In this document: positions 1,661 to 52,037 of the stretch, piece after piece
How positions within the stretch are numbered: the first letter of the stretch is position 1
Layout: every line of letters starts with the position of its first letter
Source: a virus
Lineage: Duplodnaviria; Heunggongvirae; Uroviricota; Caudoviricetes
Reading direction: 5' to 3' (one strand)
Virus record (IMG/VR): IMGVR_UViG_3300022555_000017
Span: 1-64,000 of that record
DNA: 64,000 nt
Made by a program: the position numbers and the translations under genes
The notes under the pieces: model-generated
Told to the model about the DNA's origin: nothing
Seen by the model: the letters and a program-made list of their open reading frames with translations, nothing else
Database searches by the model: none

Positions 1661-1710
1661 TAGCAGAGGTCATATTAATAATAATCTAAAATCTATACTC
1701 TGGCATCCTG

Positions 1711-2266: not shown

Positions 2267-2317
2267 GTCTTTACCCCATATTTTATATTATAACACTATT
2301 TTACCACATTTTATTTT

Positions 2318-2578: not shown

Positions 2579-2597
2579 TTATTTTTGCGTCTGCATC

Positions 2598-3387: not shown

Positions 3388-3418
3388 ATTCTTCTATAAC
3401 TATATATTTTTTATTTTT

Positions 3419-3818: not shown

Positions 3819-4108
3819 AGCTTATTAAACTCTCCTTGTATATCTAAGTCTATTTTAGATTCAGGCTTTTTGAATCTGTCTACATATGCACACCAGCCCA
3901 TATCTCTTTGTACATCATTTATACAGTTATAGTAACATGGTCTGATTCTATTCCAACTACATTCTCTGCCTTTTAAATCACATGAGGCTTTTATAGTCCA
4001 TTCATCTATTTTATAATCATCACAATAATCATCAAGTCTAAATTCATATCCTTCATTGTGTAGTTTTAGAAGTTTTATGTAGTTTGCGTCTTTTATTATT
4101 TCATTCAT
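3815..4108 (-). CDS. Cys-rich small paralog family, member 4 (97 aa)
   Basis: GYEF...C...C...RPCYYNCI...MGWCAYVDRFKKPE. Confidence 0.55.
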   Translation of the reverse strand: MNEIIKDANYIKLLKLHNEGYEFRLDDYCDDYKIDEWTIKASCDLKGRECSWNRIRPCYYNCINDVQRDMGWCAYVDRFKKPESKIDLDIQGEFNKL

Positions 4109-4398
4109 AGTTCTACATTAAACTCCTTTAGTATATTAAAGTCTACATATCCTTTTGGCCTTATAAATCTGTCTTTAAATCCGCACCAACCTTTTACATC
4201 ATCTGTAGGTACAAATATGTAATATTTATAGCATGATCTGCCGTTTGCGAAGGCACATATAGATCCATCATCATTATCACACTCATATTTTATAGACCAT
4301 GATTCTAATATATCTTTATCAGCTGTATTATATTTGAATCCATTAGCCATCATTTGCTTTAATATGTCTAAGTTTTTTATTTGCTCTGGGCTTTTCAT
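4105..4398 (-). CDS. Cys-rich small paralog family, member 5 (97 aa)
   Basis: GFKY...C...C...RSCYKYYI...KGWCGFKDRFIRPK. Confidence 0.55.
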   Translation of the reverse strand: MKSPEQIKNLDILKQMMANGFKYNTADKDILESWSIKYECDNDDGSICAFANGRSCYKYYIFVPTDDVKGWCGFKDRFIRPKGYVDFNILKEFNVEL

Positions 4399-4640
4399 AT
4401 TGTTCTAAACAGTTCCCTTTCTATATTTGAAAATCTTATACAATCGTTAGGCTTGAATCTGTCTGTGAATGAGCACTTGCGATCATCTGTAAATATTTTA
4501 GACATAATCTTATAGTGATAACATTGATCATTGCTTGAGCAATAGCATATTGATTGTCTATCTGTCACATACCATGTCGAATCATCATTAAATGTATAGC
4601 CATCTTTCATCATTTGTTGTAACTTTTCTATGTATGTCAT
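4395..4640 (-). CDS. Cys-rich small paralog family, member 6 (81 aa, divergent)
   Basis: GYTF...CYC...CYHYKI...CSFTDRFKPND. Confidence 0.45.
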   Translation of the reverse strand: MTYIEKLQQMMKDGYTFNDDSTWYVTDRQSICYCSSNDQCYHYKIMSKIFTDDRKCSFTDRFKPNDCIRFSNIERELFRTI

Positions 4641-4642
4641 TT

Positions 4643-4909
4643 CTATAATGTAAACAGTTCCTTATCCAATACTAATGTCTTTATACATTTAGGTTCTTTG
4701 AATGAACTGTGATATGAACATTGTGCTTCACCCCTAGATTCTGGAATGATTGAGTGTCTATAACATTGTGATTCATTACAATGACTAGTTAAACAATATT
4801 TTATTGTTGCTTCTTCATCAATATGCCATGAATCATCACCCATAAACGTATAGCCATCTTTTTTACGTCCATCTAAAATTCTTCTATTAAAATCTTCAGA
4901 TGTTACCAT
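4643..4909 (-). CDS. Cys-rich small paralog family, member 7 (88 aa, divergent)
   Basis: GYTF...C..HC...CYRHSI...CSYHSSFKEPK. Confidence 0.45.
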   Translation of the reverse strand: MVTSEDFNRRILDGRKKDGYTFMGDDSWHIDEEATIKYCLTSHCNESQCYRHSIIPESRGEAQCSYHSSFKEPKCIKTLVLDKELFTL

Positions 4910-5139
4910 TATCTTTCCTCAACAACTGTCCATTTGATGGGTTTATTTCTTTTTATTATCAAGTCTAGTGCGTCTTGTGCTTCTTTAAGATATGCATAAT
5001 ATGTTATATAATATGTTATATAATATGTCGGCTCACCATACATTGCTTTATATGCACCTTCATCAGTCCAGAAAAATAACAAAAATCTTCTTTGTATTTT
5101 ATATCGGTTATCATATTCTAATATACGCCATTTCTTCAT
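4909..5139 (-). CDS. Small protein, family B; paralog of 3419-3643; contains a YYITYYITYY stretch from a 12-bp micro-repeat
   Basis: Protein similarity to 3419-3643; ataatatgttat occurs about 2.7 times at 4997-5029. Confidence 0.45.
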   Translation of the reverse strand: MKKWRILEYDNRYKIQRRFLLFFWTDEGAYKAMYGEPTYYITYYITYYAYLKEAQDALDLIIKRNKPIKWTVVEER

Positions 5140-5214
5140 ATTAAAAATAGTCCTTTCTTATTTTATTAGATATGATTATAACAGAAATGTAGATAAAAGT
5201 CAAGAAGAATATTT

Positions 5215-5595
5215 TTAGTTTAAGATGGTGAATTGATCTAGTATGTCGATATGAAATGATTCAGCTTTTATAACATTTTCATTATATTCATCTAAGAACA
5301 TAGTACATTCTGAAATAAATATATCAGCTTGTTCTTCAGTATCAAAGTTTAGAATGTTTAGTTTGTGTATGTCTAGTTCTATTACATATCTATTATCAGG
5401 TCTGTAAAATCTATGGTCATCTGGCATCACAACATCACATGGTTGAAAAGTTATAGTATTATCTTTGTAGGCCCAACTCCAACTATGTTCTAAGTATGTT
5501 AGGTGTGGGTCAACATCTGTAACTCTAACTTCTACTTGCCACATTTTAAACATGTCCAGATATTCTTTAATGAACTCTATTTGTAATGGTATCAT
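5215..5595 (-). CDS. Hypothetical protein (126 aa)
   Basis: ORF overlapping the upstream gene (ATGA). Confidence 0.45.
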   Translation of the reverse strand: MIPLQIEFIKEYLDMFKMWQVEVRVTDVDPHLTYLEHSWSWAYKDNTITFQPCDVVMPDDHRFYRPDNRYVIELDIHKLNILNFDTEEQADIFISECTMFLDEYNENVIKAESFHIDILDQFTILN

Positions 5596-9718: not shown

Positions 9719-10600
9719 ATGATAGAACTTAAATATAGTTTAAATGATATTAAGGAATATGTTGAAAGTTTTAGATATAAACTTTTATCTACTGAATATA
9801 TCGGTATTATGTCAAAATTAAAATTAAAATGCCCTGAAGGCCACATATTTGAAACAAGATATAATAATTTTAAAAACATTAATAGTAGATGCCCTGAATG
9901 TAAGGGTAATAGAAAACATACATTAGAAAAAGTTAAAGAACATATTGAAAGTTTTGATTATAAACTATTATCAACAGAATATAGAAATGCCGATACAAAA
10001 CTTGAATTAAAATGTCCTTCTGGCCATATTTTTGATATAAAGTATCGTAGCTTTCAACAAGGGCAAAGATGTATGGAATGCTCAGGTAAAAGAAAACATA
10101 CATTAGATGAAGTTAAAGAATATATTGGGGTGTATGATTATAAAGTTTTATCTACTGAATATATTAATTCATATACAAAATTAAAGTTGCAATGCCCTGA
10201 AGGTCATATATTTAATATGATGTATCGTAATTTTCAACAAGGAGTTAGATGTCCTGAATGTTGTAATAAAAAAGGATGGTCTAAACCAGAAAAGGAAATA
10301 GCAAAATATGTTAAAACAATATATTCCGACAAAGTTATAGAAAATGATAGAACACAAATTAAAAACTATTGGACAAGTGCAGGTTTAGAATTAGATATAT
10401 GGCTACCTGAAGTAAAAAAAGCAATAGAGTTTAATGGTTCTTATTGGCATTCAAATAACAAAACAAAATGGTATGATGAAATGAAGAAAAGGCAGTGTAT
10501 GAAAAATGAAATTGATTTATTAGTTATAAATGAACAAGATTGGTATGATGATAAAATGTGCCAACTAAATAAAATAAATGTTTTTATAGGAGAAATGTAA
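9719..10600 (+). CDS. Zn-ribbon-repeat (x3) plus Vsr/DUF559-like nuclease family protein; putative homing endonuclease
   Basis: Three ~45-aa repeats (Y(I/V)ESF.YKLLSTEY...L.CP.GH.F...FQQG.RC.EC) and a C-terminal PEKEIA...ENDRTQ...LELDIWLPE...AIEFNGSYWH...QDWYDDK domain. Confidence 0.7.
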   Translation: MIELKYSLNDIKEYVESFRYKLLSTEYIGIMSKLKLKCPEGHIFETRYNNFKNINSRCPECKGNRKHTLEKVKEHIESFDYKLLSTEYRNADTKLELKCPSGHIFDIKYRSFQQGQRCMECSGKRKHTLDEVKEYIGVYDYKVLSTEYINSYTKLKLQCPEGHIFNMMYRNFQQGVRCPECCNKKGWSKPEKEIAKYVKTIYSDKVIENDRTQIKNYWTSAGLELDIWLPEVKKAIEFNGSYWHSNNKTKWYDEMKKRQCMKNEIDLLVINEQDWYDDKMCQLNKINVFIGEM

Positions 10601-11254: not shown

Positions 11255-11767
11255 ATGGAAAATGTTATTTTATTAAATGGTGACTTTACAATTTTGGGTT
11301 TCATAGGTTGGAAGAAAGCCATTAAGTTGATTGTAAAGAAGAGAGTTGAAGTCATTAGTTATTCTGAGCGTATTATTCATAATTTTGAAAATACTATTAG
11401 AATGGCGATTCCTGCGGTTTTGCGATTACTTAAAGTAGTTCGTAAGCTATTTGGTGTTAGAGTGCCATTAAGCAAAAGAAATGTTCTGATACGCGATGGC
11501 CATAAGTGTGCATACTGCGGTAAGGTAAATAAGAAAGGTATGACCATTGATCATGTATTGCCAAAATCAAAGGGTGGCAAAACATCATTTGATAACTTGG
11601 TAACTGCTTGTGTGCATTGTAACAACAAGAAGGACAACAAAACTTGCAAAGAAGCAGGAATATATCCAAAATTTAAGCCTTTCACACCAACTATAAATCA
11701 ATTCCTACAAATTCAATTAGAAGGTAATGGAATAGTTAAAACATTAAAAAATTTAGGTATTTTATAA
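11255..11767 (+). CDS. HNH endonuclease (free-standing)
   Basis: CAYCGK...DHVLPKSKGG...NLVTACVHCNNKK HNH motif. Confidence 0.75.
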   Translation: MENVILLNGDFTILGFIGWKKAIKLIVKKRVEVISYSERIIHNFENTIRMAIPAVLRLLKVVRKLFGVRVPLSKRNVLIRDGHKCAYCGKVNKKGMTIDHVLPKSKGGKTSFDNLVTACVHCNNKKDNKTCKEAGIYPKFKPFTPTINQFLQIQLEGNGIVKTLKNLGIL

Positions 11768-11769: not shown

Positions 11770-12285
11770 ATGCCTAAAAGGCTAGATTATATAGATGCTA
11801 AAGAATATATTGAGAATTTTAGTTATAAATTATTATCTACTGAATATATTAATGCTCTTTCTAAATTAAAATTACAATGCCCTGAAGGCCATACATTTAA
11901 AATGCATTATAGTCACTTTAAAAGAGGTATACGATGCCCTGAATGTGCATCAGCATTAAAATGGTCTAAGCCAGAAAAGGAAATAGCTGAATATATTAAA
12001 AAACATTATATAGGTGAAGTAATTGAAAATGATAGAACACAAATAACAAACCATAAAACTGGTAAGAACCTTGAACTTGATGTATGGCTACCAGAGTTGT
12101 CTAAAGCCATTGAATATAACGGACTTCATTGGCATAATAATGATAAAGTAAAGTGTCGTGATAATATAAAAAGAAAGCAATGTGTTGAAAAGAAAATAGA
12201 GTTACTTATAATAGAAGATAAAGATTGGTATGATGATAAAGTATGTTGTCTAAATAAAATAAATGAACTAATAGGTATTTTATAG
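11770..12285 (+). CDS. Zn-ribbon-repeat (x1) plus Vsr/DUF559-like nuclease family protein
   Basis: A single N-terminal repeat plus the conserved C-terminal nuclease domain. Confidence 0.7.
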   Translation: MPKRLDYIDAKEYIENFSYKLLSTEYINALSKLKLQCPEGHTFKMHYSHFKRGIRCPECASALKWSKPEKEIAEYIKKHYIGEVIENDRTQITNHKTGKNLELDVWLPELSKAIEYNGLHWHNNDKVKCRDNIKRKQCVEKKIELLIIEDKDWYDDKVCCLNKINELIGIL

Positions 12286-12774: not shown

Positions 12775-13668
12775 ATGTGGTATAAATATAGGATGAGTAA
12801 AAAATATACAATAGAAGAAATAAAACTATACATTGAAAGTTTTGGATATACATTATTATCTACTGAATATAATAAAGCACTTTCTAAATTAGACCTTCAA
12901 TGTCCTGAAGGTCATTTATTTAAAATGAGATATAATAATTTTAAGAATCAAAGTCAACGATGCTCTATTTGTTTTGGTACACCTAAGAAAACAATAGAAG
13001 AAGTTAGAAATTATATTGAAAGTTTTAATTATAACCTTCTTTCTACTGTGTATATAAATAATAAAGAAAAATTAGTATTGCAATGCCCTGAAGGTCATAT
13101 AATAAAAATACGATTGGATAGTTTTAGTCATGGAACTAGATGTTCAATATGTTCTGGTAATGATAAAAATTCTATTGAAAAAATTAAAAAGCATATAGAA
13201 AGTTTTGATTATAAACTATTATCAACAGAGTATATAAATAATAAATCAAAAATAAAATTACAATGTAGTAAAAATCATACATATCAAGCTTCTTATCATA
13301 GATTTCAACAAGGTGATAGATGCCCTTTATGTGCAAATAGTGAAGGTAAATCAAAACCCGAAAAAGAAATTGTTGAACATATTAAAATAAATTACTATAA
13401 AGATATAATAGAAAATGATAGAACACAAGTTAAAAACTTTTGGTCTAATCGTAATTTGGAGCTGGATATATTTTTACCTGATATATCTAAAGCAATAGAA
13501 TTTAATGGTATATATTGGCATAAAAATAATAATGTAAAATGGAAAGATGAAATGAAAAGAAAACAATGTATTCAAAAAGGTATTGAGTTATTAGTTATAC
13601 AAGAGCAAGATTGGTATAATGATAAGTTATGTTGTTTAAATAAAATAAATGAGTTAATAGGTGCTTAA
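12775..13668 (+). CDS. Zn-ribbon-repeat (x3) plus Vsr/DUF559-like nuclease family protein (probable start ATG 12793)
   Basis: Family motifs; stop overlaps the next gene start (TAATGAATGA). Confidence 0.7.
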   Translation: MWYKYRMSKKYTIEEIKLYIESFGYTLLSTEYNKALSKLDLQCPEGHLFKMRYNNFKNQSQRCSICFGTPKKTIEEVRNYIESFNYNLLSTVYINNKEKLVLQCPEGHIIKIRLDSFSHGTRCSICSGNDKNSIEKIKKHIESFDYKLLSTEYINNKSKIKLQCSKNHTYQASYHRFQQGDRCPLCANSEGKSKPEKEIVEHIKINYYKDIIENDRTQVKNFWSNRNLELDIFLPDISKAIEFNGIYWHKNNNVKWKDEMKRKQCIQKGIELLVIQEQDWYNDKLCCLNKINELIGA

Positions 13669-17847: not shown

Positions 17848-18735
17848 ATGAAAAAATTAAATTATATTGATGTTAAAAATAATATAGAAAATTTTGGATA
17901 TAAGTTATTATCTGAAAAATATATAAATGCTTTGACTAAACTAGAAATGCAATGTCCTGAAGGTCACGATTTTGAGATAAAATATAATAATTTTCAACAA
18001 GGTCAAAGATGCTCTATTTGTTTTGGTACGCCTAAGAAAATATTAAATGAAATTAAAGAGTATATAGAAAGTTTTAATTATAAATTACTTTCTACTGAAT
18101 ATAAAGATAATAGAACTAAACTAGAATTACAATGTTCTGAAGGCCATATATTTAAAATGGCATATGGTAGTTTTAAAAATCAAAATTATAGATGCCCGGA
18201 ATGTGCTGGTAATAGAAAATTTATAATAGAAGATATTAAAGAATATATTGAAAGTTTTGACTATAAACTTTTATCAACTGAATATGTAAATATATTTTCC
18301 AAGTTAAAAATACAATGTTTAAAAGGTCATATATACGCTGTAACGTATAATAATTTTAAGAATCATAATAGAAGATGCCCAGAATGTTCAAATAGTAAAA
18401 TGTTTTCTAAACCAGAAAAGGAAATTGCTGAATATGTTAAAGAGAATTATACTGGTGATGTTGTAGAAAATGACAGAACACAAATAGTAAATTATTGGAC
18501 AGGTGTTGGATTAGAACTTGATGTTTGGATGCCAGAAGCAAGAAAAGCAATAGAATTTAATGGTTCTTATTGGCATAATAATGAAAATGCTAAATGGCAT
18601 GATGAAATAAAAAAGAAACAATGCATACAAAAGAAAATAGATTTATTAGTTATACAAGAGCAGGATTGGTATAATGATAAGGTATGTTGTTTAAATAAAA
18701 TAAATAATTTAGTTTACAATACGGTTGGAATATAG
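17848..18735 (+). CDS. Zn-ribbon-repeat (x3) plus Vsr/DUF559-like nuclease family protein
   Basis: Family motifs. Confidence 0.7.
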   Translation: MKKLNYIDVKNNIENFGYKLLSEKYINALTKLEMQCPEGHDFEIKYNNFQQGQRCSICFGTPKKILNEIKEYIESFNYKLLSTEYKDNRTKLELQCSEGHIFKMAYGSFKNQNYRCPECAGNRKFIIEDIKEYIESFDYKLLSTEYVNIFSKLKIQCLKGHIYAVTYNNFKNHNRRCPECSNSKMFSKPEKEIAEYVKENYTGDVVENDRTQIVNYWTGVGLELDVWMPEARKAIEFNGSYWHNNENAKWHDEIKKKQCIQKKIDLLVIQEQDWYNDKVCCLNKINNLVYNTVGI

Positions 18736-22926: not shown

Positions 22927-23805
22927 ATGAATAAAAAATATACTATAGAAAATATTAAAAAAATAATGTTAGATTTTAGTTATGAACTATTATCTAATGA
23001 ATATAAAAATAATACATCAAAACTTAAAATAAAATGTGATAACAACCATATTTTTATTACTGATATGAAGCATTTTAAAAGAGGTCATAAATGCCCTGAA
23101 TGTTCTAAAAATAAAAAACACACTATTGAAAATATTAAAGAATATATAGAAAGTCTTAACTATAAACTTTTATCATCAGAATACATTAATACTCTTACAA
23201 AATTAACATTACAATGCCCTGAAGGCCATATTTATTTATCCACATATAGTAATTTTCAACAAGGAAAAAGATGTCCTGTTTGTTTTGGAACACCTAAGAA
23301 AACATTAGAAAATGTTAGTAAATATATTGAAATGTTTGGATATAAAGTTCTATCAACTGAATATATAACTAATAATACAAAATTAAAATTATCATGCCCC
23401 AATAATCATACTTTTAAGATGAGTTATAGTAGTTTTCATACAGGACAAAGATGCCCATTATGCTCTTATATAAATAGTGGTTCAATACCTGAAAAGGAAA
23501 TAGCTGAGTATACTAAAGCAATATATTCTGGTGAAGTTATAGAAAATGATAGAACACAAGTTAAAAACTATTTTACAAACTATCCATTGGAACTAGACAT
23601 ATATATACCAAAATCATCTAAAGCAATTGAATTTAACGGAAAATATTGGCATAATAATGACTATATAAAGTGGAAAGATGAAATGAAACGAAAACAATGT
23701 ATGAAAAGAGGAATTGATTTATTAGTGATAGATGAAAAGGAATGGTGTAAAAATAAGGATCAGATTTTTAAAAATATTAAGATATTTTTAAAGGAGATTA
23801 GATAA
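22927..23805 (+). CDS. Zn-ribbon-repeat (x3) plus Vsr/DUF559-like nuclease family protein
   Basis: Family motifs. Confidence 0.7.
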   Translation: MNKKYTIENIKKIMLDFSYELLSNEYKNNTSKLKIKCDNNHIFITDMKHFKRGHKCPECSKNKKHTIENIKEYIESLNYKLLSSEYINTLTKLTLQCPEGHIYLSTYSNFQQGKRCPVCFGTPKKTLENVSKYIEMFGYKVLSTEYITNNTKLKLSCPNNHTFKMSYSSFHTGQRCPLCSYINSGSIPEKEIAEYTKAIYSGEVIENDRTQVKNYFTNYPLELDIYIPKSSKAIEFNGKYWHNNDYIKWKDEMKRKQCMKRGIDLLVIDEKEWCKNKDQIFKNIKIFLKEIR

Positions 23806-28588: not shown

Positions 28589-28816
28589 ATGTCTAAAAAA
28601 TTAGAATGTAATGATGTTTGGCTACCAGAACTAAATAAAGCAATTGAGTTTAACGGCAGATATTGGCATAATAATGACATTTCAAGGTGGTACGATGAAA
28701 TGAAGGGAAGGCAATGTATTAAAAAAGGTATTGACTTATTAGTTATACAAGAACAAGATTGGTATAATGATAAACCACACTGCCTTAACAAAATAAATAA
28801 ACTTATAGGTGCATAA
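28589..28816 (+). pseudogene. Truncated remnant (75 aa) of the Zn-ribbon/Vsr-like nuclease family: C-terminal domain only
   Basis: Retains ...WLPELNKAIEFNGRYWHNND...IDLLVIQEQDWYNDK but lacks the Zn-ribbon repeats and the PEKEIA/ENDRTQ N-terminal part of the nuclease domain. Confidence 0.55.
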
Positions 28817-29663: not shown

Positions 29664-30542
29664 ATGATTGGTAAAAAATTAAATTATATAGAAGTTAAAC
29701 AATATATTGAAAGTTTTGATTATAAACTTTTATCAACAAATTATATAAATGCTTTAACAAAATTAGAATTACAATGTCCGAAAGATCATATATATTTTGG
29801 TGTATATGGTAATTTTCAACAAGGTATTAGATGCCCGGAATGCTCAGGTCTAAAAAGGAAAACTTTAAGAGGCGTAAAAGAATATATTGAAAGTTTTGGG
29901 TATGAATTATTATCCACTGAATATAAAAATAGTAAAGAAAAATTAGAATTACAATGTCCTAAAAAACATATATTTAAAATGAGTTATGTTTGTTTTCAAA
30001 GAGGGCAAAGATGCCCCGAATGCGATAAATCTAAAAAACTTACATTAAATAAAGTTAAACAATATATAGAAAATTTTGAATATAAACTTTTATCAACAGA
30101 GTATGTAAATAGTAAAACTAAATTAGAACTACAATGCCCTGAAAGTCATATTTATAATGTAATATACAATTCATTTCAGCAAGGTCAAAGATGCCCTAGT
30201 TGTGCTTCAGTTAAAGGATGGTCTAAACCTGAAAAGGAAATTGCTGAATATATTAAACAAAACTATATTGGTGAAGTTATGGAAAATGATAGAACACAAG
30301 TAAAGAACTATTGGTCGGGTAAAAATTTAGAATTAGACATATTTTTACCTGAATTAAATAAAGCTGTTGAATATAATGGTGAGTACTGGCATAATAATGA
30401 TAAATCAAGATGGTATGATGAAATGAAAAAGAAGCAATGTAAACAAAAAAATATAAATTTATTGGTTATACAAGAACAAGATTGGTATGATAATAAACCA
30501 TACTGTCTTAACAAAATAAATAACTTCATTGTAAATTTATGA
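29664..30542 (+). CDS. Zn-ribbon-repeat (x3) plus Vsr/DUF559-like nuclease family protein
   Basis: Family motifs; directly followed by another member. Confidence 0.7.
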   Translation: MIGKKLNYIEVKQYIESFDYKLLSTNYINALTKLELQCPKDHIYFGVYGNFQQGIRCPECSGLKRKTLRGVKEYIESFGYELLSTEYKNSKEKLELQCPKKHIFKMSYVCFQRGQRCPECDKSKKLTLNKVKQYIENFEYKLLSTEYVNSKTKLELQCPESHIYNVIYNSFQQGQRCPSCASVKGWSKPEKEIAEYIKQNYIGEVMENDRTQVKNYWSGKNLELDIFLPELNKAVEYNGEYWHNNDKSRWYDEMKKKQCKQKNINLLVIQEQDWYDNKPYCLNKINNFIVNL

Positions 30543-30597: not shown

Positions 30598-31479
30598 ATG
30601 CAAAAATTATCATATAATGAAATTAGAAAATATATAGAAAGTTTTAATTATAAATGGCTATCTGGTGAATATAAAGATAATAAATCCAAATTAAATATTC
30701 AATGCCCAGAAGAGCATATTTACAAGGCATCATATAATAGTTTTCATAGAGGACGCAGATGCCCTAAATGTTTTGGAACTCATAAAAAATCTAATGAAGA
30801 AGTCAAAAGTTATATAGAAAGTTTCAACTATAAACTTCTATCTACTGAATACAAAAATAGTAAAGAAAAATTAGAACTACAATGCCCAAAAGGTCATATT
30901 TATTTTGCAAGTTATGATGATTTTCAACAAGAACATAGATGCCCTGAATGTGCAAATAAAATGAAGGGAGATAGTCAACGATTAGAAATTAATAATGTGA
31001 AAGAATATATAGAGGGTTTTGGATATAAACTTTTATCAACAGAATATAAAAATGTTTTATCTAATTTGAGATTGGAATGTTTAAATGGTCATAAATTTTT
31101 AATGAGATATAATAGTTTTCAACAGGGACAACGATGCCCTAAATGTTCGTATATTGACAAAAGTTCAAAACCTGAAAAAGAAATTGCTAAATATGTTAAA
31201 ACTATTTATTCTGGTAAAATGATTGAAAACGACAGGACACAAGTAAAAAACTATTGGTCTAGTCGTAATTTAGAACTTGATATATTTTTACCTGAATTAT
31301 CTAAAGCAATTGAATTTAATGGTATATATTGGCATTCAAATGATAAAACGATGTGGTGTGATGAAATGAAGAAAAAACAATGCATACAAAAGGGTATTGA
31401 TTTATTTGTAATAGATGAAAAACATTGGCGTGATGATAAGGTATGTTGTTTAAGTAATATAACGAAATTTATAATGTAG
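30598..31479 (+). CDS. Zn-ribbon-repeat (x3) plus Vsr/DUF559-like nuclease family protein (ORF opens at 30562)
   Basis: Family motifs; tandem with 29664-30542. Confidence 0.7.
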   Translation: MQKLSYNEIRKYIESFNYKWLSGEYKDNKSKLNIQCPEEHIYKASYNSFHRGRRCPKCFGTHKKSNEEVKSYIESFNYKLLSTEYKNSKEKLELQCPKGHIYFASYDDFQQEHRCPECANKMKGDSQRLEINNVKEYIEGFGYKLLSTEYKNVLSNLRLECLNGHKFLMRYNSFQQGQRCPKCSYIDKSSKPEKEIAKYVKTIYSGKMIENDRTQVKNYWSSRNLELDIFLPELSKAIEFNGIYWHSNDKTMWCDEMKKKQCIQKGIDLFVIDEKHWRDDKVCCLSNITKFIM

Positions 31480-31495: not shown

Positions 31496-32365
31496 ATGAC
31501 AAAATGCAATCTATTTGATATGAACAATCTGGCGGTTCGCTGTTTCTTTAGCAAGGACATAGAGGCAGATTCTCCCCACCCAAATATCCAACTATGGAAG
31601 TATTTCGTAATAGATTCAGTATACAACTCACTATTTAAGGATAAAACTACTGAAATTGTGCTTGCTGTTGATGATAGAAGGTCATGGAGAAAGAATGTAT
31701 TTCCAAGATATAAAGAAGGGAGAAAGGGTAAAAGAGAAGTAAGTAAAGTAGATTGGAATATTTTTTATACAGAATATGATAGTCTATTAGAAGAGATTAG
31801 AAATAACCTACCATTCAAAGTGATCCATGTAACTGAAGCAGAAGCCGATGATATTATTGGTGTTATTGCTCTATATGGAACAAAAGATAAGTATACTGTT
31901 GTGAGTAATGATGAAGATTACTTACAACTTTCATCTAGCAAAGTAAAAATCTATAATCCAATGAAAATGACATATGTTGAATGCCAAGACACTGAGAAAT
32001 TTATCATAGAAAAGAGCCTATTGGGCCAAAAGAAAGATGATATATTTAATATTAAAACTCCTGTTGATTGGCCTATAGACAAGAGAAAGCCAGGCTTTGG
32101 TGATGCAGCACTAGCTAAAGTTATGGAATACGGTTGGGAAAAGTGGTTAAAAGATAACAAACTTGAAGATAGATATGAACTGAATAGAACTCTTATTGAT
32201 TTTAAGAGAATACCAGTATATCTAAGAACAGGTATCTTAAATTGTTATGATAGTTATGTTTTACCTGATCCCAGTAATTGTTATGGATTTTTCAAGTCTA
32301 ATAATTTTAGAGGATACCTTGAAAATTTTCATAATGTAGAAAATAATCTTTTAAAAATGTATTAG
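31496..32365 (+). CDS. rnh: T4-type RNase H / FEN 5'-3' exonuclease
   Basis: AVDDRRSWRKNVFPRYKEGRKGKRE...VTEAEADDIIGVIA...VSNDEDYLQL aligns to T4 RNase H (CIDNAKSGYWRRDF..YKKNRGKARE..KYEADDHIAVL..SSDGDFTQL). Confidence 0.8.
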   Translation: MTKCNLFDMNNLAVRCFFSKDIEADSPHPNIQLWKYFVIDSVYNSLFKDKTTEIVLAVDDRRSWRKNVFPRYKEGRKGKREVSKVDWNIFYTEYDSLLEEIRNNLPFKVIHVTEAEADDIIGVIALYGTKDKYTVVSNDEDYLQLSSSKVKIYNPMKMTYVECQDTEKFIIEKSLLGQKKDDIFNIKTPVDWPIDKRKPGFGDAALAKVMEYGWEKWLKDNKLEDRYELNRTLIDFKRIPVYLRTGILNCYDSYVLPDPSNCYGFFKSNNFRGYLENFHNVENNLLKMY

Positions 32366-32373: not shown

Positions 32374-32577
32374 ATGCGTACATTTTTTGTTGTAAATGCA
32401 ATGAACAAGGAGGCATTTGAAAAGGCATTTCAAGCACCTTACGGATTCTCATCATCCACACCATTTACTAGCTATGATCAGGCTGTAGAATATTGTTCTT
32501 GCAAGCCTAAGCAATTCATTGTAGTAAAGGTAGAAAGTGGCGAAGAAGAAGTAGTTTACGAAAATAAGGAAGGATAA
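32374..32577 (+). CDS. Hypothetical protein (67 aa)
   Basis: RBS aggagg. Confidence 0.4.
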   Translation: MRTFFVVNAMNKEAFEKAFQAPYGFSSSTPFTSYDQAVEYCSCKPKQFIVVKVESGEEEVVYENKEG

Positions 32578-32604
32578 GACTAAAATTTATTTTTGGGTCA
32601 AAAG

Positions 32605-32640
32605 TGGCTGTGATCAAAAATCACAGCCATTTCTGTCTTT
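32605..32640 (+). terminator. Rho-independent terminator
   Basis: tggctgtgat-caaaa-atcacagcca perfect 10-bp stem followed by tttctgtcttt. Confidence 0.65.
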
Positions 32641-32675
32641 ATTGATCAAAATAGATTTTAATAAAAATAAAAAAT

Positions 32676-33182
32676 ATGATAAATAAACTTACCAATAAGC
32701 TACCTCTCGCAGGATATGAAATTAGTTTTAATGATGATCCTACGATGAAAACAACGTGCTTGGTTTTATTTGCATCAGGCTGTGTTAGACATTGTAATGG
32801 ATGCCAAAATCCAGAACTGCAAATTATGGATGAAACAAAAATCATATCCATAAATCAAGTTAAAAAAATAATAAAAAGTAAACAAGTACTAATAGATAGC
32901 GTTGCCTTTAGTGGCGGAGATTTTATACCGTTATATAGTGAGCAATTAAAAGAATTAATTTGTTTCTGTAAAAATAATACATTGAAAACCATTATATATA
33001 CTGGTGAAACATACGATAAAATAAACGAATGGTTTAGAGAAAATTCTGATATTATTGTATCAGAGCCTTATGATAGTGACATGAAACAAGGTGGATTTCC
33101 AGCCTCTACAAATCAAAGAGTGTATATAAATGGAAAAGAAGTAGATGTGAAGAAATTACAGATTAATAATATGGGAGTATAG
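32676..33182 (+). CDS. nrdG: Anaerobic ribonucleotide reductase activating protein NrdG (radical SAM)
   Basis: TTCLVLFASGCVRHCNGCQNPEL (CxxxCxxC) matches E. coli NrdG TRCTLFVSGCVHECPGCYNKSTW, plus the FSGGD motif. Confidence 0.8.
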   Translation: MINKLTNKLPLAGYEISFNDDPTMKTTCLVLFASGCVRHCNGCQNPELQIMDETKIISINQVKKIIKSKQVLIDSVAFSGGDFIPLYSEQLKELICFCKNNTLKTIIYTGETYDKINEWFRENSDIIVSEPYDSDMKQGGFPASTNQRVYINGKEVDVKKLQINNMGV

Positions 33183-33878
33183 ATGCCTGCAAAATTAATT
33201 TATACAAATATTAAAAACTATATTGAAGATTTTAATTATAAACTTTTATCAACTGAATATGTAAATAATAAAGAAATATTAAAATTAAAATGCCCTCAGA
33301 ACCATTTATTTAATATGTCTTTTCATACTTTTAAAGATAATGGAAATAGATGCTTTGAATGTAGTGGGAAAAAAAGAAATATATTAAATGTGGTTAAAAA
33401 CTATATTGAAGATTTTAATTATAAACTTTTATCTACCAGTTATATAAAAGCTTTAGATAAATTGAAATTACAATGCCCTAAAGGCCATATATTTGAAATG
33501 CGATATAATGATTTTCAACAAGGCCATAGATGTCCAGAGTGTTCATTGGTATTAGGATGGTCTAAAGCTGAAAAGGAAATTGTTGAATATGTTAAAAGTA
33601 TATATTCTGGTAATATAATAGAAAATGATAGAACGGTATGTAAAAACTATTGGTCTGGAAAAAATCTCGAACTTGATATATATTTACCAGAAATACAAAA
33701 AGCTATTGAATACAATGGGCGACATTGGCATTCATTTGAACAAAAACAATGGTATGATGAAATGAAGAAAAAGCAATGTATTAAAAAAGGTATTAATTTA
33801 TTAGTCATACAAGAGCAAGATTGGTTAGATAATAAGATGTATCAATTAAATAAAATAAATAAACTAGTAGGAGTATAG
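33183..33878 (+). CDS. Zn-ribbon-repeat (x2) plus Vsr/DUF559-like nuclease family protein, inserted exactly between nrdG and nrdD
   Basis: Starts at the nucleotide after the nrdG stop and ends 5 nt before the nrdD start. Confidence 0.7.
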   Translation: MPAKLIYTNIKNYIEDFNYKLLSTEYVNNKEILKLKCPQNHLFNMSFHTFKDNGNRCFECSGKKRNILNVVKNYIEDFNYKLLSTSYIKALDKLKLQCPKGHIFEMRYNDFQQGHRCPECSLVLGWSKAEKEIVEYVKSIYSGNIIENDRTVCKNYWSGKNLELDIYLPEIQKAIEYNGRHWHSFEQKQWYDEMKKKQCIKKGINLLVIQEQDWLDNKMYQLNKINKLVGV

Positions 33879-33883
33879 AACAA

Positions 33884-35818
33884 ATGTTAAATCTTTCAAT
33901 GGATTATGACGAAGGGTTTTCAAACCTATATAACAAGTGGAACAGTAGTGAAAGAGGAAAAAAGTTTCTTGAGTTTATTGGTATATCAAGGGATAAGTTA
34001 GATATAGTATCAATGAGTAAGTTGTATTTCAGTAAGAGTGAAGAAGATAGGACAATAGATGTAAATGCTAATGTTGGAAGGATAACAAGTCCTAACAATT
34101 ATCAAGCAGAAGTATTCAAGGGTGTAACAAAGTTAAATGGTCTTTTTCTTTTGTGGCAACATATGTCAAAAAAGAGAGGGGAAGAAACAGCTAGCAGAGT
34201 AGTATCAGGTATTATATCAGGCGATTATTATTTCCATGATTTAACATCTTCAGGTGTTTTAGTTCCCTATTGTTTTGCTTGGGCATCTAACAATGTTTTA
34301 AGTGAAGGTCGTAAGTATGGACAGTTACAATCTAAGTCACCGAAGAGAAGTGATTCATTCATTGCCGTCTGTATTGAATCTATTTTTGATATGGCACAAG
34401 AACAAATGGGGGCATTAGCTATACCAGATTTTATTGTTAATCTAGCATATTTTTATAAGAAAGAAGGTATTGATCCAGAATCAGAAGAAGGTAAGTATAA
34501 GATAGAGAACGATTTCCAAAGAATAATCCATTCATTAAATCAACAGTATAGAACAAGTAATCAATCAGCATTTACAAACTTTTCATTATTTGATAGAGAA
34601 ATCTTTAGAACAACATTTGCTGATTATTCATATCCAGATGGTACAAGTTGTCTAGACCTAACAGAATATATACAATCAGTTCAAAAGGTTTATATTGAGT
34701 TTGTTGCTAAGAAAGACCCATCAACAAAACTGCCATATAGATTTCCCGTTAATACACTAAACATCTATACAACAGAAGATCGTGAAATAGTTGATCAAAA
34801 GTTCTTTGACGTTGTGTGTAAGAATAATACAGAAGGACTATTTAATATATTCATTAGTAGAGGAAAAGCTAAGTTAGCATCCTGCTGCAGATTATTAAGT
34901 GATCCTATTAAGTTGAGAGAGTTTGCGAGATTTGATTCGTTCGCTAATGCAGGTCTATCACTTGGTAGTGCTAGAGTAGTAACGGTTAATTTTGCTAGAA
35001 TAGGTAAGTTAGCTAAGAATGATAAAGATAAATATTTCTTTCTGTTAAGTGAAAGATTAAATGATGTTAGAATGTTACTGAAATGTCAGAGGCATTTACT
35101 TAAACAGAAGATTGATGAAGGATTTCTAAAGTTCTTTAAGATGGATTGGATGAATATGAAGATGTTCTTTTCAACATTCGGCATGACAGGACTCAATGAA
35201 AGTATGTTGTTCATGGGTATTGACATAAAGACAGATGAAGGTATTGAGTTTGCTAAGGAACTATTCTTCTTCATTGAAAAGAAACTTGATGAGTTCAGTA
35301 GAGAAGATAGTATTGCTTACAACCTTGAGCAAGTTCCAGCAGAAGGTGCGGCATCCATGTTGGCAAGAATGGATAAGTTGTATTTCAATGATGAAGATTA
35401 TCCTTATGAGATATATGCAAATCAGTTTATACCTCTATGGGAGAAGTCAGACATTGTTGAACGAGCTACATTAGATGGCAAGTTAGGTAGTTATATGAGT
35501 GGTGGTAGTATTTGTCACTTGAATATTGGTACTAAAGTAACTGAGAAACAAATGGGTAAGCTAATCAATCTAGCAATCAAGTCAGGTCTTGAGCATTTTG
35601 CGTTGAATCCTAACTATTTGAAATGTGAAAATGATTGTATAACTATTGGAAGTAATAATGTCGAAACTTGTCCTAAATGTGGTGGTGATATTGTTGAAGC
35701 CTATAGTCGTGTCGTTGGCTACTTTACACCTGTAACACAATGGGATAAAACCAGAAGGGCAAAGGATTATGCTAATAGAACATTTAATGATATTGATATA
35801 ATAGAAGGTTTGTGTTAA
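33884..35818 (+). CDS. nrdD: Anaerobic ribonucleoside-triphosphate reductase NrdD (class III RNR), uninterrupted
   Basis: C-terminal CPKCGG...RVVGYFTPV zinc ribbon and glycyl-radical motif; size and overall pattern match T4/E. coli NrdD. Confidence 0.85.
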   Translation: MLNLSMDYDEGFSNLYNKWNSSERGKKFLEFIGISRDKLDIVSMSKLYFSKSEEDRTIDVNANVGRITSPNNYQAEVFKGVTKLNGLFLLWQHMSKKRGEETASRVVSGIISGDYYFHDLTSSGVLVPYCFAWASNNVLSEGRKYGQLQSKSPKRSDSFIAVCIESIFDMAQEQMGALAIPDFIVNLAYFYKKEGIDPESEEGKYKIENDFQRIIHSLNQQYRTSNQSAFTNFSLFDREIFRTTFADYSYPDGTSCLDLTEYIQSVQKVYIEFVAKKDPSTKLPYRFPVNTLNIYTTEDREIVDQKFFDVVCKNNTEGLFNIFISRGKAKLASCCRLLSDPIKLREFARFDSFANAGLSLGSARVVTVNFARIGKLAKNDKDKYFFLLSERLNDVRMLLKCQRHLLKQKIDEGFLKFFKMDWMNMKMFFSTFGMTGLNESMLFMGIDIKTDEGIEFAKELFFFIEKKLDEFSREDSIAYNLEQVPAEGAASMLARMDKLYFNDEDYPYEIYANQFIPLWEKSDIVERATLDGKLGSYMSGGSICHLNIGTKVTEKQMGKLINLAIKSGLEHFALNPNYLKCENDCITIGSNNVETCPKCGGDIVEAYSRVVGYFTPVTQWDKTRRAKDYANRTFNDIDIIEGLC

Positions 35819-35938
35819 AAAAATTAGTATTAAAAGAAGTTAAACAATATATAGAAAAATTTGATTGTGAATTAATTTTAAATGAGAGTGTTTATAAACA
35901 ATTACGAAAAATACATACTTTCATTGAAAACATTTAAC

Positions 35939-35967
35939 TTGATCTTTTACTAAAAATGTAGTATAAT
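35939..35967 (+). promoter_or_regulatory. Sigma70 consensus promoter, TTGATC-17-TATAAT
   Basis: ttgatc at 35939-35944, 17-nt spacer, tataat at 35962-35967; aggag RBS then ATG at 35984. Confidence 0.55.
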
Positions 35968-35983
35968 GTACAAATAGGAGAAT

Positions 35984-36280
35984 ATGTGTATGTATCAAAA
36001 ACAACTATCGGGAACTGAAATCGCAAAGGAATTAGGCATAACAAGACAAGCTGTTTCAAATACATTAAAAAGGGCAATGAAAAAAGTATACATAGGTGTT
36101 CAAGATTTTGAAGAAACCTGGACGCCTTTCCAAGTTGCCTCAGCAATGATTGAGGCATTTGGTATCTCATCACAAGAGGAAGTGAACAAATTTTTTAGAT
36201 TATTTCCTCCTGAAATTAAGGAGCTTATAGAATTAGATGCCGAACACCGAAAAGGAAAAAAAGATAAGGATTTGTATTAA
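35984..36280 (+). CDS. Small sigma-70 region-4-like HTH protein (98 aa)
   Basis: LSGTEIAKELGITRQAVSNTLKRAMKKV resembles the sigma region 4 consensus LSY.EIA..LGIS.GTVKSRLHRARKKL. Confidence 0.5.
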   Translation: MCMYQKQLSGTEIAKELGITRQAVSNTLKRAMKKVYIGVQDFEETWTPFQVASAMIEAFGISSQEEVNKFFRLFPPEIKELIELDAEHRKGKKDKDLY

Positions 36281-36429
36281 TTGTTTTAACTGTAAACAAA
36301 AGGATAAGTTTCTCTATTGTAAAGAAGAATACTTTAATCCAACTATTTATAAGATAGCACAGTTATACACACCACAAGACCATGATTGTATAGACTACAT
36401 ATCTATGGACGATTAGAAAGGATTTAAAA

Positions 36430-37482
36430 ATGTTAAGTTTAGATGTTGTGAATGATTTTATGTATGAGCACTTCTCTAAGGTGACTACATCAAAGAATGG
36501 GTCACATTTTCATGCTCGCTGCATACTTTGTGGCGATTCCAAAACCAATCCAAACAAGAAGAGATTTCACCTAGAATATAATTCTGGGCAATCTGTATAT
36601 CATTGTTTCAATTGTAATGCTTCTGGCTCATTTCTTGAACTATATTCTATACTTAAAAATATTTCAATCAATGAAGCAAAGAAAGAACTATATCAATATA
36701 ATCCAGAAAATTTAATTCAAATCTTATCAACAAGAAAAAAAGAAAAATTTATAAAAGAAATTGAGCATGAAGTATTTAACTATATCTTAGATGATTGTGT
36801 TGGCTTAGATTATAATAATGGTGGCTATATTCAAATGCAGTATAAAAGCAAGTTAAAACAATTTAAAAATGATAGAAAAATTCCTGATAATTTTAAGCTT
36901 TTTATTGCTTATAGAGGCGAATATCAAGGTAGGGTTCTTCTTCCAATTTATGATGGTAATGATATTGTTTATTTTCAAGGTAGACTGCTTGAGAATGATG
37001 ATGATAGTGTAAAGTATAAAAATCCTACTTTACAAAAAGAAAGTATCATTCTAAATAAAGGTAAGTTTGATAGAAATAAATATATTGTGATTACTGAAGG
37101 TATCATTGATGCTCTTCAAATTGGAGATCAAGGGACAAGTTGTTTAGGTGCGACAATTAGTAATGAATTTATTGAGGAACTATTAACTTTTACTGATATG
37201 GGTGTCATTATTGCACTTGACAATGATGAACGAGGTAAAAAGGAAATGGTTAAGTTTATAAAGACTAATAAATACGCCTCCAATGTGAGATATTTTTTAT
37301 TTCCTAATAAATATAACTGTAAAGATTTTGGGGAGCTTGTAAATAAATATTCTGTAGATTCTCTATATGAGATGATTATTGAAAATTCACTTTCAAACTT
37401 TGAAGCTCTCATGAAATTGAAAATGGAGGATAGTGATAATGAAATTAACACAAAAAGGAACGGATTATATAGAAATAAATGA
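36430..37482 (+). CDS. DNA primase (T4 gp61-like: Zn-ribbon plus TOPRIM)
   Basis: HARCILCGDSKTNPNKKRFHL...YHCFNCNASGSF zinc-binding region; ITEGIIDALQ and DNDERG TOPRIM-like motifs. Confidence 0.7.
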   Translation: MLSLDVVNDFMYEHFSKVTTSKNGSHFHARCILCGDSKTNPNKKRFHLEYNSGQSVYHCFNCNASGSFLELYSILKNISINEAKKELYQYNPENLIQILSTRKKEKFIKEIEHEVFNYILDDCVGLDYNNGGYIQMQYKSKLKQFKNDRKIPDNFKLFIAYRGEYQGRVLLPIYDGNDIVYFQGRLLENDDDSVKYKNPTLQKESIILNKGKFDRNKYIVITEGIIDALQIGDQGTSCLGATISNEFIEELLTFTDMGVIIALDNDERGKKEMVKFIKTNKYASNVRYFLFPNKYNCKDFGELVNKYSVDSLYEMIIENSLSNFEALMKLKMEDSDNEINTKRNGLYRNK

Positions 37483-37891
37483 AGAATCATTAGATGATGA
37501 TATAATATTAAAAATACCTAAAATACATTTAATTAAGTTAAACTTTAGAGAACCCACCAAAGAAAAAATAGAAGATGCCATACAGTTATTTTATAATACC
37601 AATAGATTTGTAATAGCTAATAACACGAAAATATATAACGATACATTTAAGAATACGATTAAAAAATATTATGTTGAAAACCAACCAGACCAGAAATTGG
37701 TATCATTCTTTCGCAAAAATAATAAGGTTCTTTTAAACTTCAGTAATGTAAATGAAATTGAATTTAAATTTTTAATTTATTCACTTCTTGATGTATTAAA
37801 AAATGTTGAAGTGGTTCAAATGCCTAAAAAAGTATATCTGCAAAATATCCAATACTTTGAAAATTGGAATGGGAATGTGATAATAAATTAA
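37433..37891 (+). CDS. Hypothetical protein (152 aa)
   Basis: ORF overlapping the end of the primase gene. Confidence 0.4.
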   Translation: MIMKLTQKGTDYIEINEESLDDDIILKIPKIHLIKLNFREPTKEKIEDAIQLFYNTNRFVIANNTKIYNDTFKNTIKKYYVENQPDQKLVSFFRKNNKVLLNFSNVNEIEFKFLIYSLLDVLKNVEVVQMPKKVYLQNIQYFENWNGNVIIN

Positions 37892-38728
37892 ATGAAAATT
37901 CTTGCATTAGGCCCATATATGGGAAATTGGGAAAATGAAATTTGTAATTTTTATCCATACGCTAAATGGTTATGTGAAATTGTAAAATATGATGATGTTT
38001 TTATAGCTACACATTCTAACAGAGTATTTTTATATGATTGGATTAAAAAGAATAATCACTTAAATGTTTTTGAGAATCTAAGTCGTGACGAATTTTCACA
38101 GGTTGGTGCGACGCATAAGAATATATCACAGGAAGATTATACACTTATTTATAAGAAGTTTAAAAATGATGTATCAAGGTATTCAGTAAGTGGCAAGAAA
38201 AATATAGAGGTGTATAACATTCAATATACACCTCAAAATGTATTTTATCCATATCATAATAAGATATATGCTAAAATACAAATTGATTATGAAGAAAATA
38301 AAGAAAATATTGTTTATATACCAGACATTAAAGAAGATAAGAAAATTATAAACGAAATATATAATCAATTAATAAAGAAGTATAAAAATGTTGTTGTAGT
38401 AGGTGATATGAAAACGCATTTAAGCGACCATAATATTATATTAAAACATAGTGATTATTTTCAAAATGGCTATAAGTATATATTAAAAGAAATGATGAAT
38501 GCTAAGGCTGTAATATGCCCATTGGGCCATTGGTCTTTATTATGTAATATTCAAAAGATACCAGTATTTTCTTGGGGTATTCCTTCTGGCTTATATGGTG
38601 GATCAATGTATAACTTAGAGAATAGAAACTGTAAAAACTATAGATATGATATAAGTATGACGCCAGAAAAATTAGTTAGAATGTTTGATTTTTTCTTGGA
38701 AAATATAAAAATTAGGAAGGAGAAGTAA
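37892..38728 (+). CDS. Hypothetical protein (278 aa)
   Basis: ORF. Confidence 0.45.
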   Translation: MKILALGPYMGNWENEICNFYPYAKWLCEIVKYDDVFIATHSNRVFLYDWIKKNNHLNVFENLSRDEFSQVGATHKNISQEDYTLIYKKFKNDVSRYSVSGKKNIEVYNIQYTPQNVFYPYHNKIYAKIQIDYEENKENIVYIPDIKEDKKIINEIYNQLIKKYKNVVVVGDMKTHLSDHNIILKHSDYFQNGYKYILKEMMNAKAVICPLGHWSLLCNIQKIPVFSWGIPSGLYGGSMYNLENRNCKNYRYDISMTPEKLVRMFDFFLENIKIRKEK

Positions 38729-51125: not shown

Positions 51126-52037
51126 ATGTTAAATAAAAAATATAATTTAAATACAGTTAGAGAGTATATAGAAAGTTTTAGTTATAAACTTTTATCAACT
51201 GAATATAAAGATAACAAATCTAAATTATTATTACAATGTCCTAAAAATCATATAATAAAATTATCACTTCATAATTTTAAAGAAAATAGATGTTCTATAT
51301 GTTCAAATAAAAAACCTGATTTATATGAAATTAGTAACTATGTTGAAAGTTTCAATTATAAAGTTATATCTACAGAATATACAAATAAAAAAAATAAATT
51401 AAAAATACAATGTTCTGAAGGGCATATTTATGAAAGTAGTTATAACAGTTTTAAAAATGGTATTAGATGCCACTTATGTAAAGATAAAAAACTAAAAAAG
51501 GAAAAATTACACACTAATATTTTATATAATAAAAAGAAAACTTTAAAAGAAGTTAAAGAATATATTGAAAGTTTTGGTTATAATCTTTTATTTACAGAAT
51601 ATATAAATGCTAGGTCTAAATTAAAGTTAAAATGCCCTTCTGAGCATATATATAATGTAAAATGGCCAGATTTTAAAAACAATCATAGATGTCCTGAATG
51701 TGCATCGGTTAAGGGATGGTCTAAGCCAGAAAAAGAAATAGCTGAATATGTTAAAACAATATATTTAAATAATATTATAGAAAATGATAGAACACAAATA
51801 AAGAACTATTGGACAAATAAAAATTTAGAACTGGATATTTGGCTACCAGAAATAAGAAAAGCAATAGAGTTTAATGGTTCTTATTGGCATAATAATGATA
51901 AGTCAAGATGGTATGATGAAATAAAAAAGAAACAATGCATACAAAAAGGTATTGATTTATTAGTTATAAATGAACAAGATTGGTATGATGATAAAAAACT
52001 TCAATTGAATAATATTGGAGGATTTATCAATGTTTGA
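51126..52037 (+). CDS. Zn-ribbon-repeat (x3) plus Vsr/DUF559-like nuclease family protein
   Basis: Family motifs; located at the 3' end of the glycan cluster. Confidence 0.7.
   Translation: MLNKKYNLNTVREYIESFSYKLLSTEYKDNKSKLLLQCPKNHIIKLSLHNFKENRCSICSNKKPDLYEISNYVESFNYKVISTEYTNKKNKLKIQCSEGHIYESSYNSFKNGIRCHLCKDKKLKKEKLHTNILYNKKKTLKEVKEYIESFGYNLLFTEYINARSKLKLKCPSEHIYNVKWPDFKNNHRCPECASVKGWSKPEKEIAEYVKTIYLNNIIENDRTQIKNYWTNKNLELDIWLPEIRKAIEFNGSYWHNNDKSRWYDEIKKKQCIQKGIDLLVINEQDWYDDKKLQLNNIGGFINV

Follow-up and report, generated by a model that had tools for sequence, protein, structure and literature searches.

A Hef-type endonuclease gene, probably a homing cassette, between nrdG and nrdD in an uncultured T4-like phage

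How does a gene for an endonuclease-like protein come to stand between two genes whose products work together, touching the first and nearly touching the second? The question is raised by a stretch of 64,000 nucleotides (nt) of viral DNA, positions 1 to 64,000 of the IMG/VR record IMGVR_UViG_3300022555_000017 (Caudoviricetes), which as a whole will be called the window. There, an open reading frame (ORF), named hef#9 or simply hef in what follows, separates nrdG from nrdD, that is, the activase gene from the gene of the catalytic subunit of a class III ribonucleotide reductase (Table 1). An initial annotation had taken this tight interruption of an operon as the typical footprint of a homing endonuclease gene. 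It was well founded as to the gene, which is of the Hef type and is missing, with a clean empty site, from a near-identical phage, and less so as to the argument from spacing, since gaps of at most 5 nt are commonplace, being found at 32 of the 63 consecutive gene junctions on the + strand of the window. What lifts the case above chance is comparison with relatives, not spacing. The reading favoured here, to which we give a probability of roughly 0.85, is that hef#9 would be a free-standing Hef-type homing endonuclease gene, lodged as an ORF-exact, promoter-less cassette where nrdG meets nrdD in a T4-like phage, uncultured and about 190-197 kilobases (kb) in size.

The phage belongs to a lineage without a match in reference collections. 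Searched at near identity, the DNA of the region has no match among GenBank phages, where the best nrdD match stands at 31%, and scans for relatives by protein pattern and by 25-mers, run on IMG/VR and JGI metagenome contigs, came back empty as well; the relatives discussed here were located by a search with the NrdD protein and by exact-protein look-ups of metagenome contigs. One of them, L001 (a metagenome scaffold, ENA ERZ19039528), has a NrdD 99% identical to that of the window, and its nrdG is followed directly by nrdD, with no hef. Nucleotides 1-723 of L001 correspond to window 32461-33183 at 99.7% and nucleotides 714-5568 to window 33870-38710 at 98.1%, with an overlap of 10 nt between them, and the insert missing from L001 is exactly 696 nt, the whole hef#9 ORF. 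The empty site reads ...AATATGGGAGTATAG AGCAA ATGTTG... (nrdG stop, 5 nt, nrdD ATG) and the filled site ...GGAGTATAG ATGCCT...(hef)...GTAGGAGTATAG AACAA ATGTTA..., where AACAA are the 5 nt that separate the hef#9 TAG from the nrdD ATG at 33884. The initial annotation had proposed to align this junction in related phages, expecting that a precise presence/absence polymorphism with conserved flanks would define the target site. Such an alignment of L001 with the window gives precisely that polymorphism, 696 nt long and with conserved flanks, and it fixes the insertion site exactly; the recognition site is a more indirect matter, as the cleavage activity of the protein and its cut site are things that we infer. 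It had further reckoned with a stable resident gene, should all relatives carry an orthologue at this place: L001, L002-L007 and L009 have no family member at the junction.

The insert is bounded by the 10-mer GGAGTATAGA, which occurs exactly twice in the 64-kb window, the copies being 696 nt apart, and once in L001; the counterpart upstream of nrdD in the more distant relative L007 is AGGAGTAT. Since the duplicated 10-mer combines the nrdG stop with the Shine-Dalgarno sequence of nrdD, the insert deprives none of the three genes, nrdG, hef or nrdD, of its stop or ribosome-binding site. The layout is that of a free-standing gene without an intron or intein of its own, on the same strand as both neighbours and with gaps of 0 and 5 nt, as the initial annotation had stated with exact coordinates. 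Terminator-like sites were found neither at the nrdG/hef and hef/nrdD junctions nor within hef or nrdD, so that hef#9 appears embedded in the nrdG-nrdD transcription unit as a promoter-less cassette. Two overlapping weak terminator-like matches lie within nrdG (32900-32917), a scan for sigma-70-type promoters met no enrichment (22 sites for 23 expected), and the starts of hef and nrdD are not significantly masked by RNA structure (z-scores -0.4 to -0.7).

The flanks of the insert are strikingly unequal. To the left, the window and L001 differ at 2 of 723 nt, with no difference in nrdG. Directly to the right, the dense patch of Table 1 departs from a background of 0.17% with P of about 1e-28; its codon changes comprise seven synonymous ones and a single non-synonymous one (S5G), and include switches between the TCA and AGT serine codons and between the CTT and TTA leucine codons. 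There follow about 1100 nt with 1 difference, then 58 differences in 35031-35816, then about 2900 nt with few. The window-type patch is present in all 11 hef-carrying sequences for which there is DNA (the window, L010-L014 and L024-L028), L014 and L028 being off by one or two bases each, so that patch and hef are completely linked. This fits the import by recombination of an old, diverged and functional nrdD 5' end, rather than mutation in situ. The outgroup L007 sides with the L001 patch at four codons and with the window patch at two, which weakly suggests that the hef-linked version is the imported one. The patch is a candidate co-conversion tract, a candidate cleavage-site region, or both. 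Contigs in which a 639-amino-acid (aa) nrdD product is called 20 nt after hef were considered as hef-carrying recombinants with an L001-type patch and set aside: they are of the window type, two of them 100% identical to the window, and only the start chosen by the gene caller differs.

How the cassette might spread can be proposed as follows. During co-infection the hef#9 protein would cut both strands of hef-less genomes, either at the junction or close to it; the break would be resected and then repaired by phage recombination from the co-infecting genome that carries hef; hef would be copied together with the adjacent nrdD 5' sequence between insertion site and cut, a case of co-conversion; and the diverged patch, the split junction or the two together would protect hef-carrying genomes from being cut again. 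As the patch lies on one side only, the cut would be expected in the first 50 nt or so of nrdD, a placement on which the odds are about even.

Several points weigh against this account. GGAGTA is a common ribosome-binding motif in the phage, and non-cognate pairs of upstream sequences and gene ends share up to 10 nt; for this reason the 10-nt repeat is read as microhomology or functional constraint, not as proof of transposition. L001 is the sole hef-less contig among the close relatives, and it comes from another sample series than the hef carriers. The likeness to Hef is a likeness to proteins annotated as Hef-like, the characterised Hef of phage U5 having been compared by description only. 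Nor was a divergent donor lineage with the window-type patch found among the relatives. The main loose end is on the left, where there are no co-converted differences at all: an identical nrdG is not obviously what a divergent nrdG-hef-nrdD donor predicts, and the missing left tract requires that the left junction was resolved within the 10-mer or that leftward resection was minimal.

The protein itself is well preserved: hef#9 is an intact gene, and none of the catalytic or zinc-ligand residues is missing from its product. An AlphaFold model built on a 37-sequence alignment (mean predicted local distance difference test, pLDDT, of 86) has two tandem modules followed by an alpha/beta domain, with the limits given in Table 1. 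The two modules agree with the description of the gene as a two-repeat version in the initial annotation and with an internal direct repeat of 125 nt (33211-33335 and 33394-33518, 76% identical, 183 nt or 61 codons apart). Both match the treble-clef Pfam models DUF4379 and CapR, slightly above the cut-off, and their Cys-His-Cys-Cys ligand sets are invariant or nearly so in the family alignment; presumably these putative zinc modules serve DNA binding and recognition. The C-terminal domain resembles 3R3P, the catalytic domain of I-Bth0305I (Foldseek probability 1.0, template modelling score 0.72), and 3R3P is also the sole match of the family sequence profile in the whole PDB (E=4.6e-5), in an alignment that spans the N-H-D part of the motif. 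The five residues E130, D165, N178, H183 and D192 vary little or not at all across the 37 sequences, and the D-N, N-H and H-D spacings are 13, 5 and 9 in hef#9 as against 12, 5 and 9 in I-Bth0305I (D196, N208, H213, D222), the equivalence of E130 with E170 of the latter following from conservation and position only. A Vsr-like fold, the composite catalytic motif and detectable homology to a characterised member are thus all present, as they should be in the EDxHD family, which was defined by Taylor et al. 2011 and includes Hef-type phage homing endonucleases (PMC3239194).

Membership of the Hef group is suggested by homology over the whole length. The PHROGs families phrog_559 and phrog_3339, annotated endonuclease and homing endonuclease, match hef#9 with E=1e-44 and 8e-23. 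The best annotated GenBank phage matches are Campylobacter phage proteins named 'Hef73', 'putative Hef-like homing endonuclease' or 'homing endonuclease' (35-38% identity over 94-96% of the query, E of about 1e-24), so that full-length similarity to proteins annotated Hef or Hef-like is established. A tblastn search with hef#9 matched 390 phage records, Campylobacter phages having 10-16 matches per genome, and others being found in Klebsiella phages, Bacillus phage AR9, Dickeya phage LIMEstone1 (F-LimIII) and further phages. Of the closest two-module homologues in other phages, P0163 was tried as a counterpart at an nrd locus and discarded, its context being unrelated (Mom-like / PrkA).

To be sure, ribonucleotide reductase genes have met such elements before. 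In phage U5, hef sits between nrdA and nrdB and its product cleaves the neighbouring nrdB, according to the papers that report this work (Sandegren, Nord & Sjoberg 2005, as cited in PMC2988022, PMC3322345). As far as these accounts go, the two cases share a free-standing endonuclease gene placed between two ribonucleotide reductase genes and co-transcribed with them; they differ in that the U5 gene lies at a class I locus, nrdA/nrdB, whereas hef#9 lies at a class III locus, in that the two host phages are unrelated at the DNA level, and in that U5 Hef has a demonstrated activity while that of hef#9 is predicted. The same junction is occupied in phage T4 by mobC, an HNH gene, the place of which is taken by segH, a GIY-YIG gene, in several T4-related phages (PMC2988022). 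T4 free-standing endonuclease genes are promoter-less cassettes that depend on upstream promoters and abut or overlap the upstream ORF; their mobility is accompanied by co-conversion, and they are linked to marker exclusion (PMC2988022). hef#9 has the same niche in T4-like phages and the same cassette form, abutting what precedes it; by contrast, its predicted nuclease is of the Vsr-like EDxHD kind, with other DNA-binding domains, and its arrival is a colonisation of the junction independent of theirs. With I-Bth0305I, the prototype of the EDxHD family (PDB 3R3P; PMC3239194), hef#9 shares catalytic fold and residues, but the former, the product of a group I intron within recA, uses NUMOD and helix-turn-helix elements to bind DNA, whereas hef#9 is free-standing and has two treble-clef zinc modules. 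The same build is met in the Hef-like genes of Campylobacter phages (e.g. Hef73 of NCTC12673), with their association of zinc modules and nuclease and their many paralogues per T4-like genome, though these belong to another phage lineage and give no DNA match. By the features examined, hef#9 falls within the Hef-type branch of EDxHD homing endonucleases, and it is no new kind of system.

The gene is not alone in its genome. That it belongs to a family within the window had been noticed at the outset, and tblastn counts ten loci on the + strand, 52-66% identical, plus a short remnant right after nrdD. Full-length copies carry one to three zinc modules, most paralogues having three where hef#9 has two. 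A mosaic patch of 90 nt in the first module of hef#9 (33251-33341), with 20 substitutions and 11 amino-acid changes, splits the window, L014, L024 and L027 from L010-L013, while the remaining 7.9-kb region is 99.6% identical. Pieces of this patch match paralogues, at 18266-18292 (100% over 27 nt) and 30833-30890 (90%), a sign that paralogues may have undergone gene conversion with one another in the module presumed to recognise DNA. A recoded patch comparable to that of nrdD is seen at the 5' end of the RNase H gene (31507-31561), 28-82 nt downstream of the stop of paralogue #8 (30598-31479), where 11 codons differ synonymously and one non-synonymously between the window and L012-L014; a second dense patch, at 31384-31430, lies at the end of the paralogue itself and separates the same sequences.

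The remnant to the right of nrdD, about 25 codons of a Hef N-terminus at window 35812-35937, overlaps the nrdD stop; it reads KKLVLKEVKQYIEKFDCELILNESVY, to be compared with KKLNYIEVKQYIESFDYKLLSTNYI in the paralogue at 29664, and the hef-less L001 has the identical sequence. It has the look of a second insertion, since decayed, at the far end of nrdD. The nrdD 3' tract that ends exactly at this remnant (35031-35816) has 58 of its 786 nt (7.4%) substituted with respect to L001, with 46 codons changed synonymously and 6 non-synonymously, and the difference at 35816 abolishes the stop codon in L001, the NrdD of which is 3 aa longer.

One may go further, on doubtful ground, and see in the Hef family a cassette that fits itself in and whose DNA-recognition array is modular and can be re-assorted. 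Insertion would duplicate the upstream stop together with the downstream ribosome-binding site (10-13 nt), leaving all three genes expressed; the one to three treble-clef modules would be swapped among paralogues by gene conversion, the 90-nt, 11-aa patch being an example; such swaps would retarget copies to new intergenic junctions, with growth to ten or more copies per genome; and every copy would leave the gene downstream of it with a short recoded stretch at its 5' end, as in nrdD and the RNase H gene. Were this true, the zinc modules of Hef would be a natural programmable DNA-recognition code joined to a Vsr-like nuclease.

Could the same gene, acting by the same mechanism, be kept mainly for what it brings to the phage, by marker exclusion or by degrading the genomes of rivals? 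This is unlikely, and differs from homing in its selective rationale alone. It can invoke the near fixation of hef among close relatives, the link of T4 free-standing endonucleases to marker exclusion (PMC2988022), and a pattern of variation that resembles a sweep. Among six hef-carrying sequences (the window and L010-L014; 30946-36757), segregating sites number 0 in 507 nt of nrdG, 2 in 1935 of nrdD and 0 in 932 downstream, as against 28 in 879 for the RNase H gene and 62 in 480 at the end of paralogue #8. The nrdG-hef-nrdD block is compatible with one recently spread haplotype. A homing element nearing fixation would leave the same pattern, however, and sequence does not separate benefit from drive.

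Much less probable is that hef#9 is a stable, possibly domesticated resident, which L001 lost by slippage or recombination between the 10-nt repeats. Such direct repeats do permit a precise deletion that leaves one copy, the block is almost monomorphic in hef carriers, and the gene is present in nearly all close relatives sampled. An exact-sequence look-up of NrdG found at least 23 metagenome contigs with an identical nrdG, and the 231-aa gene, at spacings of 0 and 5 nt, in 10 of 10 places among the NrdG matches listed. For a second NrdD start variant ten more places are listed, where the 231-aa gene directly precedes nrdD or appears as a cut ORF when the contig begins inside it; the DNA of five of these ten aligns to the window from within hef onward. 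hef#9 is close to fixation among the close relatives sampled. Yet slippage would leave a right flank of the window type, and L001 differs at 14 of the next 46 nt: as the patch begins 1 nt after the repeat, a slippage deletion from a window-type genome cannot yield L001. The L007 codons favour the L001 patch as the native one; the ten paralogues, the mosaic patches and the decayed remnant argue for turnover; and no more distant relative examined has a family member at the junction. In L002-L005 (NrdD 65% identical) nrdG and nrdD are 30 nt apart, in L006 (63%) 25 nt, and in L009 (61%) only a 42-aa ORF lies between them; in L007 (81%) there is an unrelated 94-aa ORF (L007 1175-1459) without Pfam match, with its start 1 nt past the nrdG stop. 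Ancestrally, nrdG and nrdD formed an uninterrupted pair, and their junction accepts inserts that differ from lineage to lineage. L007 has a further oddity, as its nrdD frame (L007 1481-4039) departs from NrdD after ...KLASC and runs on as CFSGDE..., intein-like, to a stop, after which comes a 372-aa ORF with C2H2 / Ros-MucR-type zinc fingers.

Even less likely is a transposition-like or illegitimate insertion, of the 'moron' kind, with a 10-base-pair target-site duplication and a nuclease irrelevant to its spread. The exact 10-nt direct repeat that flanks the insert and is single in the empty site is what this explanation calls for, and the 94-aa ORF of L007 makes the site one that accepts other insertions. 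A 13-nt repeat also flanks another family member: the one-module gene 11770-12285 comes 2 nt after a gene for an HNH endonuclease (11255-11767; PF01844, E=7e-15), and both end in the same 13 nt, TAGGTATTTTATA. No empty site for the one-module gene was found, 24 of 24 related contigs carrying it together with the HNH gene, so that it offers no insertion test. Against such an insertion, the only ORF of the hef#9 insert is the nuclease, neither a transposase or integrase gene nor terminal inverted repeats being found; the right repeat holds the last codons of hef, which ends as its paralogues do (I/V-G-x-stop), and is thus not a neutral target duplication; GGAGTA is too widely shared, as stated above, for the repeat to be telling; and a target-site duplication leaves the linked 46-nt patch unexplained.

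That the hef-less junction of L001 is an assembly or scaffolding artefact is scarcely credible: L001 is indeed a metagenome scaffold, with one run of N elsewhere (opposite window 37762 or thereabouts), and hef paralogues do break assemblies, but a 10-nt repeat is too short for assembly collapse, beyond the junction L001 follows a separate haplotype that is compatible with coding (14 differences, mostly synonymous), and at the 3' end of nrdD, too, its haplotype is its own. In many related contigs (17.2-17.7 kb) one end falls within paralogue #8, and L021 has a 175-aa product in place of the 293-aa paralogue #1 of the window. The multi-copy hef family breaks assemblies, and other copies are polymorphic too.

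Several consequences follow. A third nuclease family, Vsr-like EDxHD of the Hef type, is placed at the T4-like nrdG/nrdD junction beside the HNH gene mobC and the GIY-YIG gene segH, which supports the view that ribonucleotide reductase genes are recurrent targets of homing elements. The filled and empty alleles, besides giving the exact insertion site, delimit a candidate 46-nt target or immunity region, and could serve directly as substrates for mapping, for the first time, where a zinc-module Hef enzyme cleaves. For annotation, multi-copy 'hypothetical' ORFs of this sort would be mobile nuclease genes, and they are at the same time the break points of the metagenome assemblies of the phage.

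Table 1. Features of the nrdG-hef-nrdD locus and loci of the Hef family, in positions of the window
Feature	Position	Strand	Remarks
Terminator-like hairpin	32602..32632	+	upstream of nrdG
nrdG	32676..33182	+	168 aa; TAG at 33180-33182; class III ribonucleotide reductase activase
GGAGTATAGA, left copy	33174..33183	+	spans the final nrdG codons and the stop; its GGAG, 5 nt ahead of the hef ATG, is the ribosome-binding site of hef
hef#9	33183..33878	+	231 aa; ATG begins at the base right after the nrdG stop; TAG ends at 33878
Zinc module 1 (putative)	33189..33365	+	aa 3-61; ligands C37, H41, C57, C60
Zinc module 2 (putative)	33384..33554	+	aa 68-124; ligands C98, H102, C117, C120, all invariant in the family alignment
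Vsr-like nuclease domain (predicted)	33564..33872	+	aa 128-230
EDxHD residues	E130 (33570), D165 (33675), N178 (33714), H183 (33729), D192 (33756)	+	from the family alignment
GGAGTATAGA, right copy	33870..33879	+	last codons and stop of hef; ribosome-binding site of nrdD
Dense patch	33880..33925	+	14 differences in 46 nt against L001, directly right of the insert
nrdD	33884..35818	+	644 aa, intact; anaerobic ribonucleotide reductase catalytic subunit
Hef family locus	9719-10600	+	
Hef family locus	11770-12285	+	
Hef family locus	12775-13668	+	
Hef family locus	17848-18735	+	
Hef family locus	22927-23805	+	
Hef family locus	28589-28816	+	fragment
Hef family locus	29664-30542	+	
Hef family locus	30598-31479	+	
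Hef family locus	33183-33878	+	hef#9
Hef family locus	51126-52037	+	

The identity of the two neighbours, which the initial annotation had named correctly, is borne out by protein matches and motifs. The nrdD product matches PF13597 (NRDD family, E=6e-87) and has the glycyl-radical motif RVVGY near its C-terminus; the nrdG product matches Fer4_12 (E=1.6e-14) and contains CVRHCNGC, its radical-SAM match being weaker and under the Pfam cut-off. A glycyl-radical NrdD and a NrdG activase with a CxxxCxxC motif, encoded by genes that are neighbours in relatives as well, make up a class III nrdG-nrdD operon. The window has a G+C content of 29%, and genes for replication and recombination of the T4 type (RNase H, primase) lie on the same strand.

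Two features of its left end concern other genes. On the - strand, the ORF 2318-2572 starts with about ten tandem copies of MNVK, derived from a 12-nt tandem repeat, and has a mirror ORF on the + strand. Also on the - strand, at 3109-5139, there are at least seven small paralogous ORFs (74-97 aa) with endings like ...ILKEFxxx and an N-terminal 'GYTF' motif; they are a second expanded gene family, unrelated to Hef.

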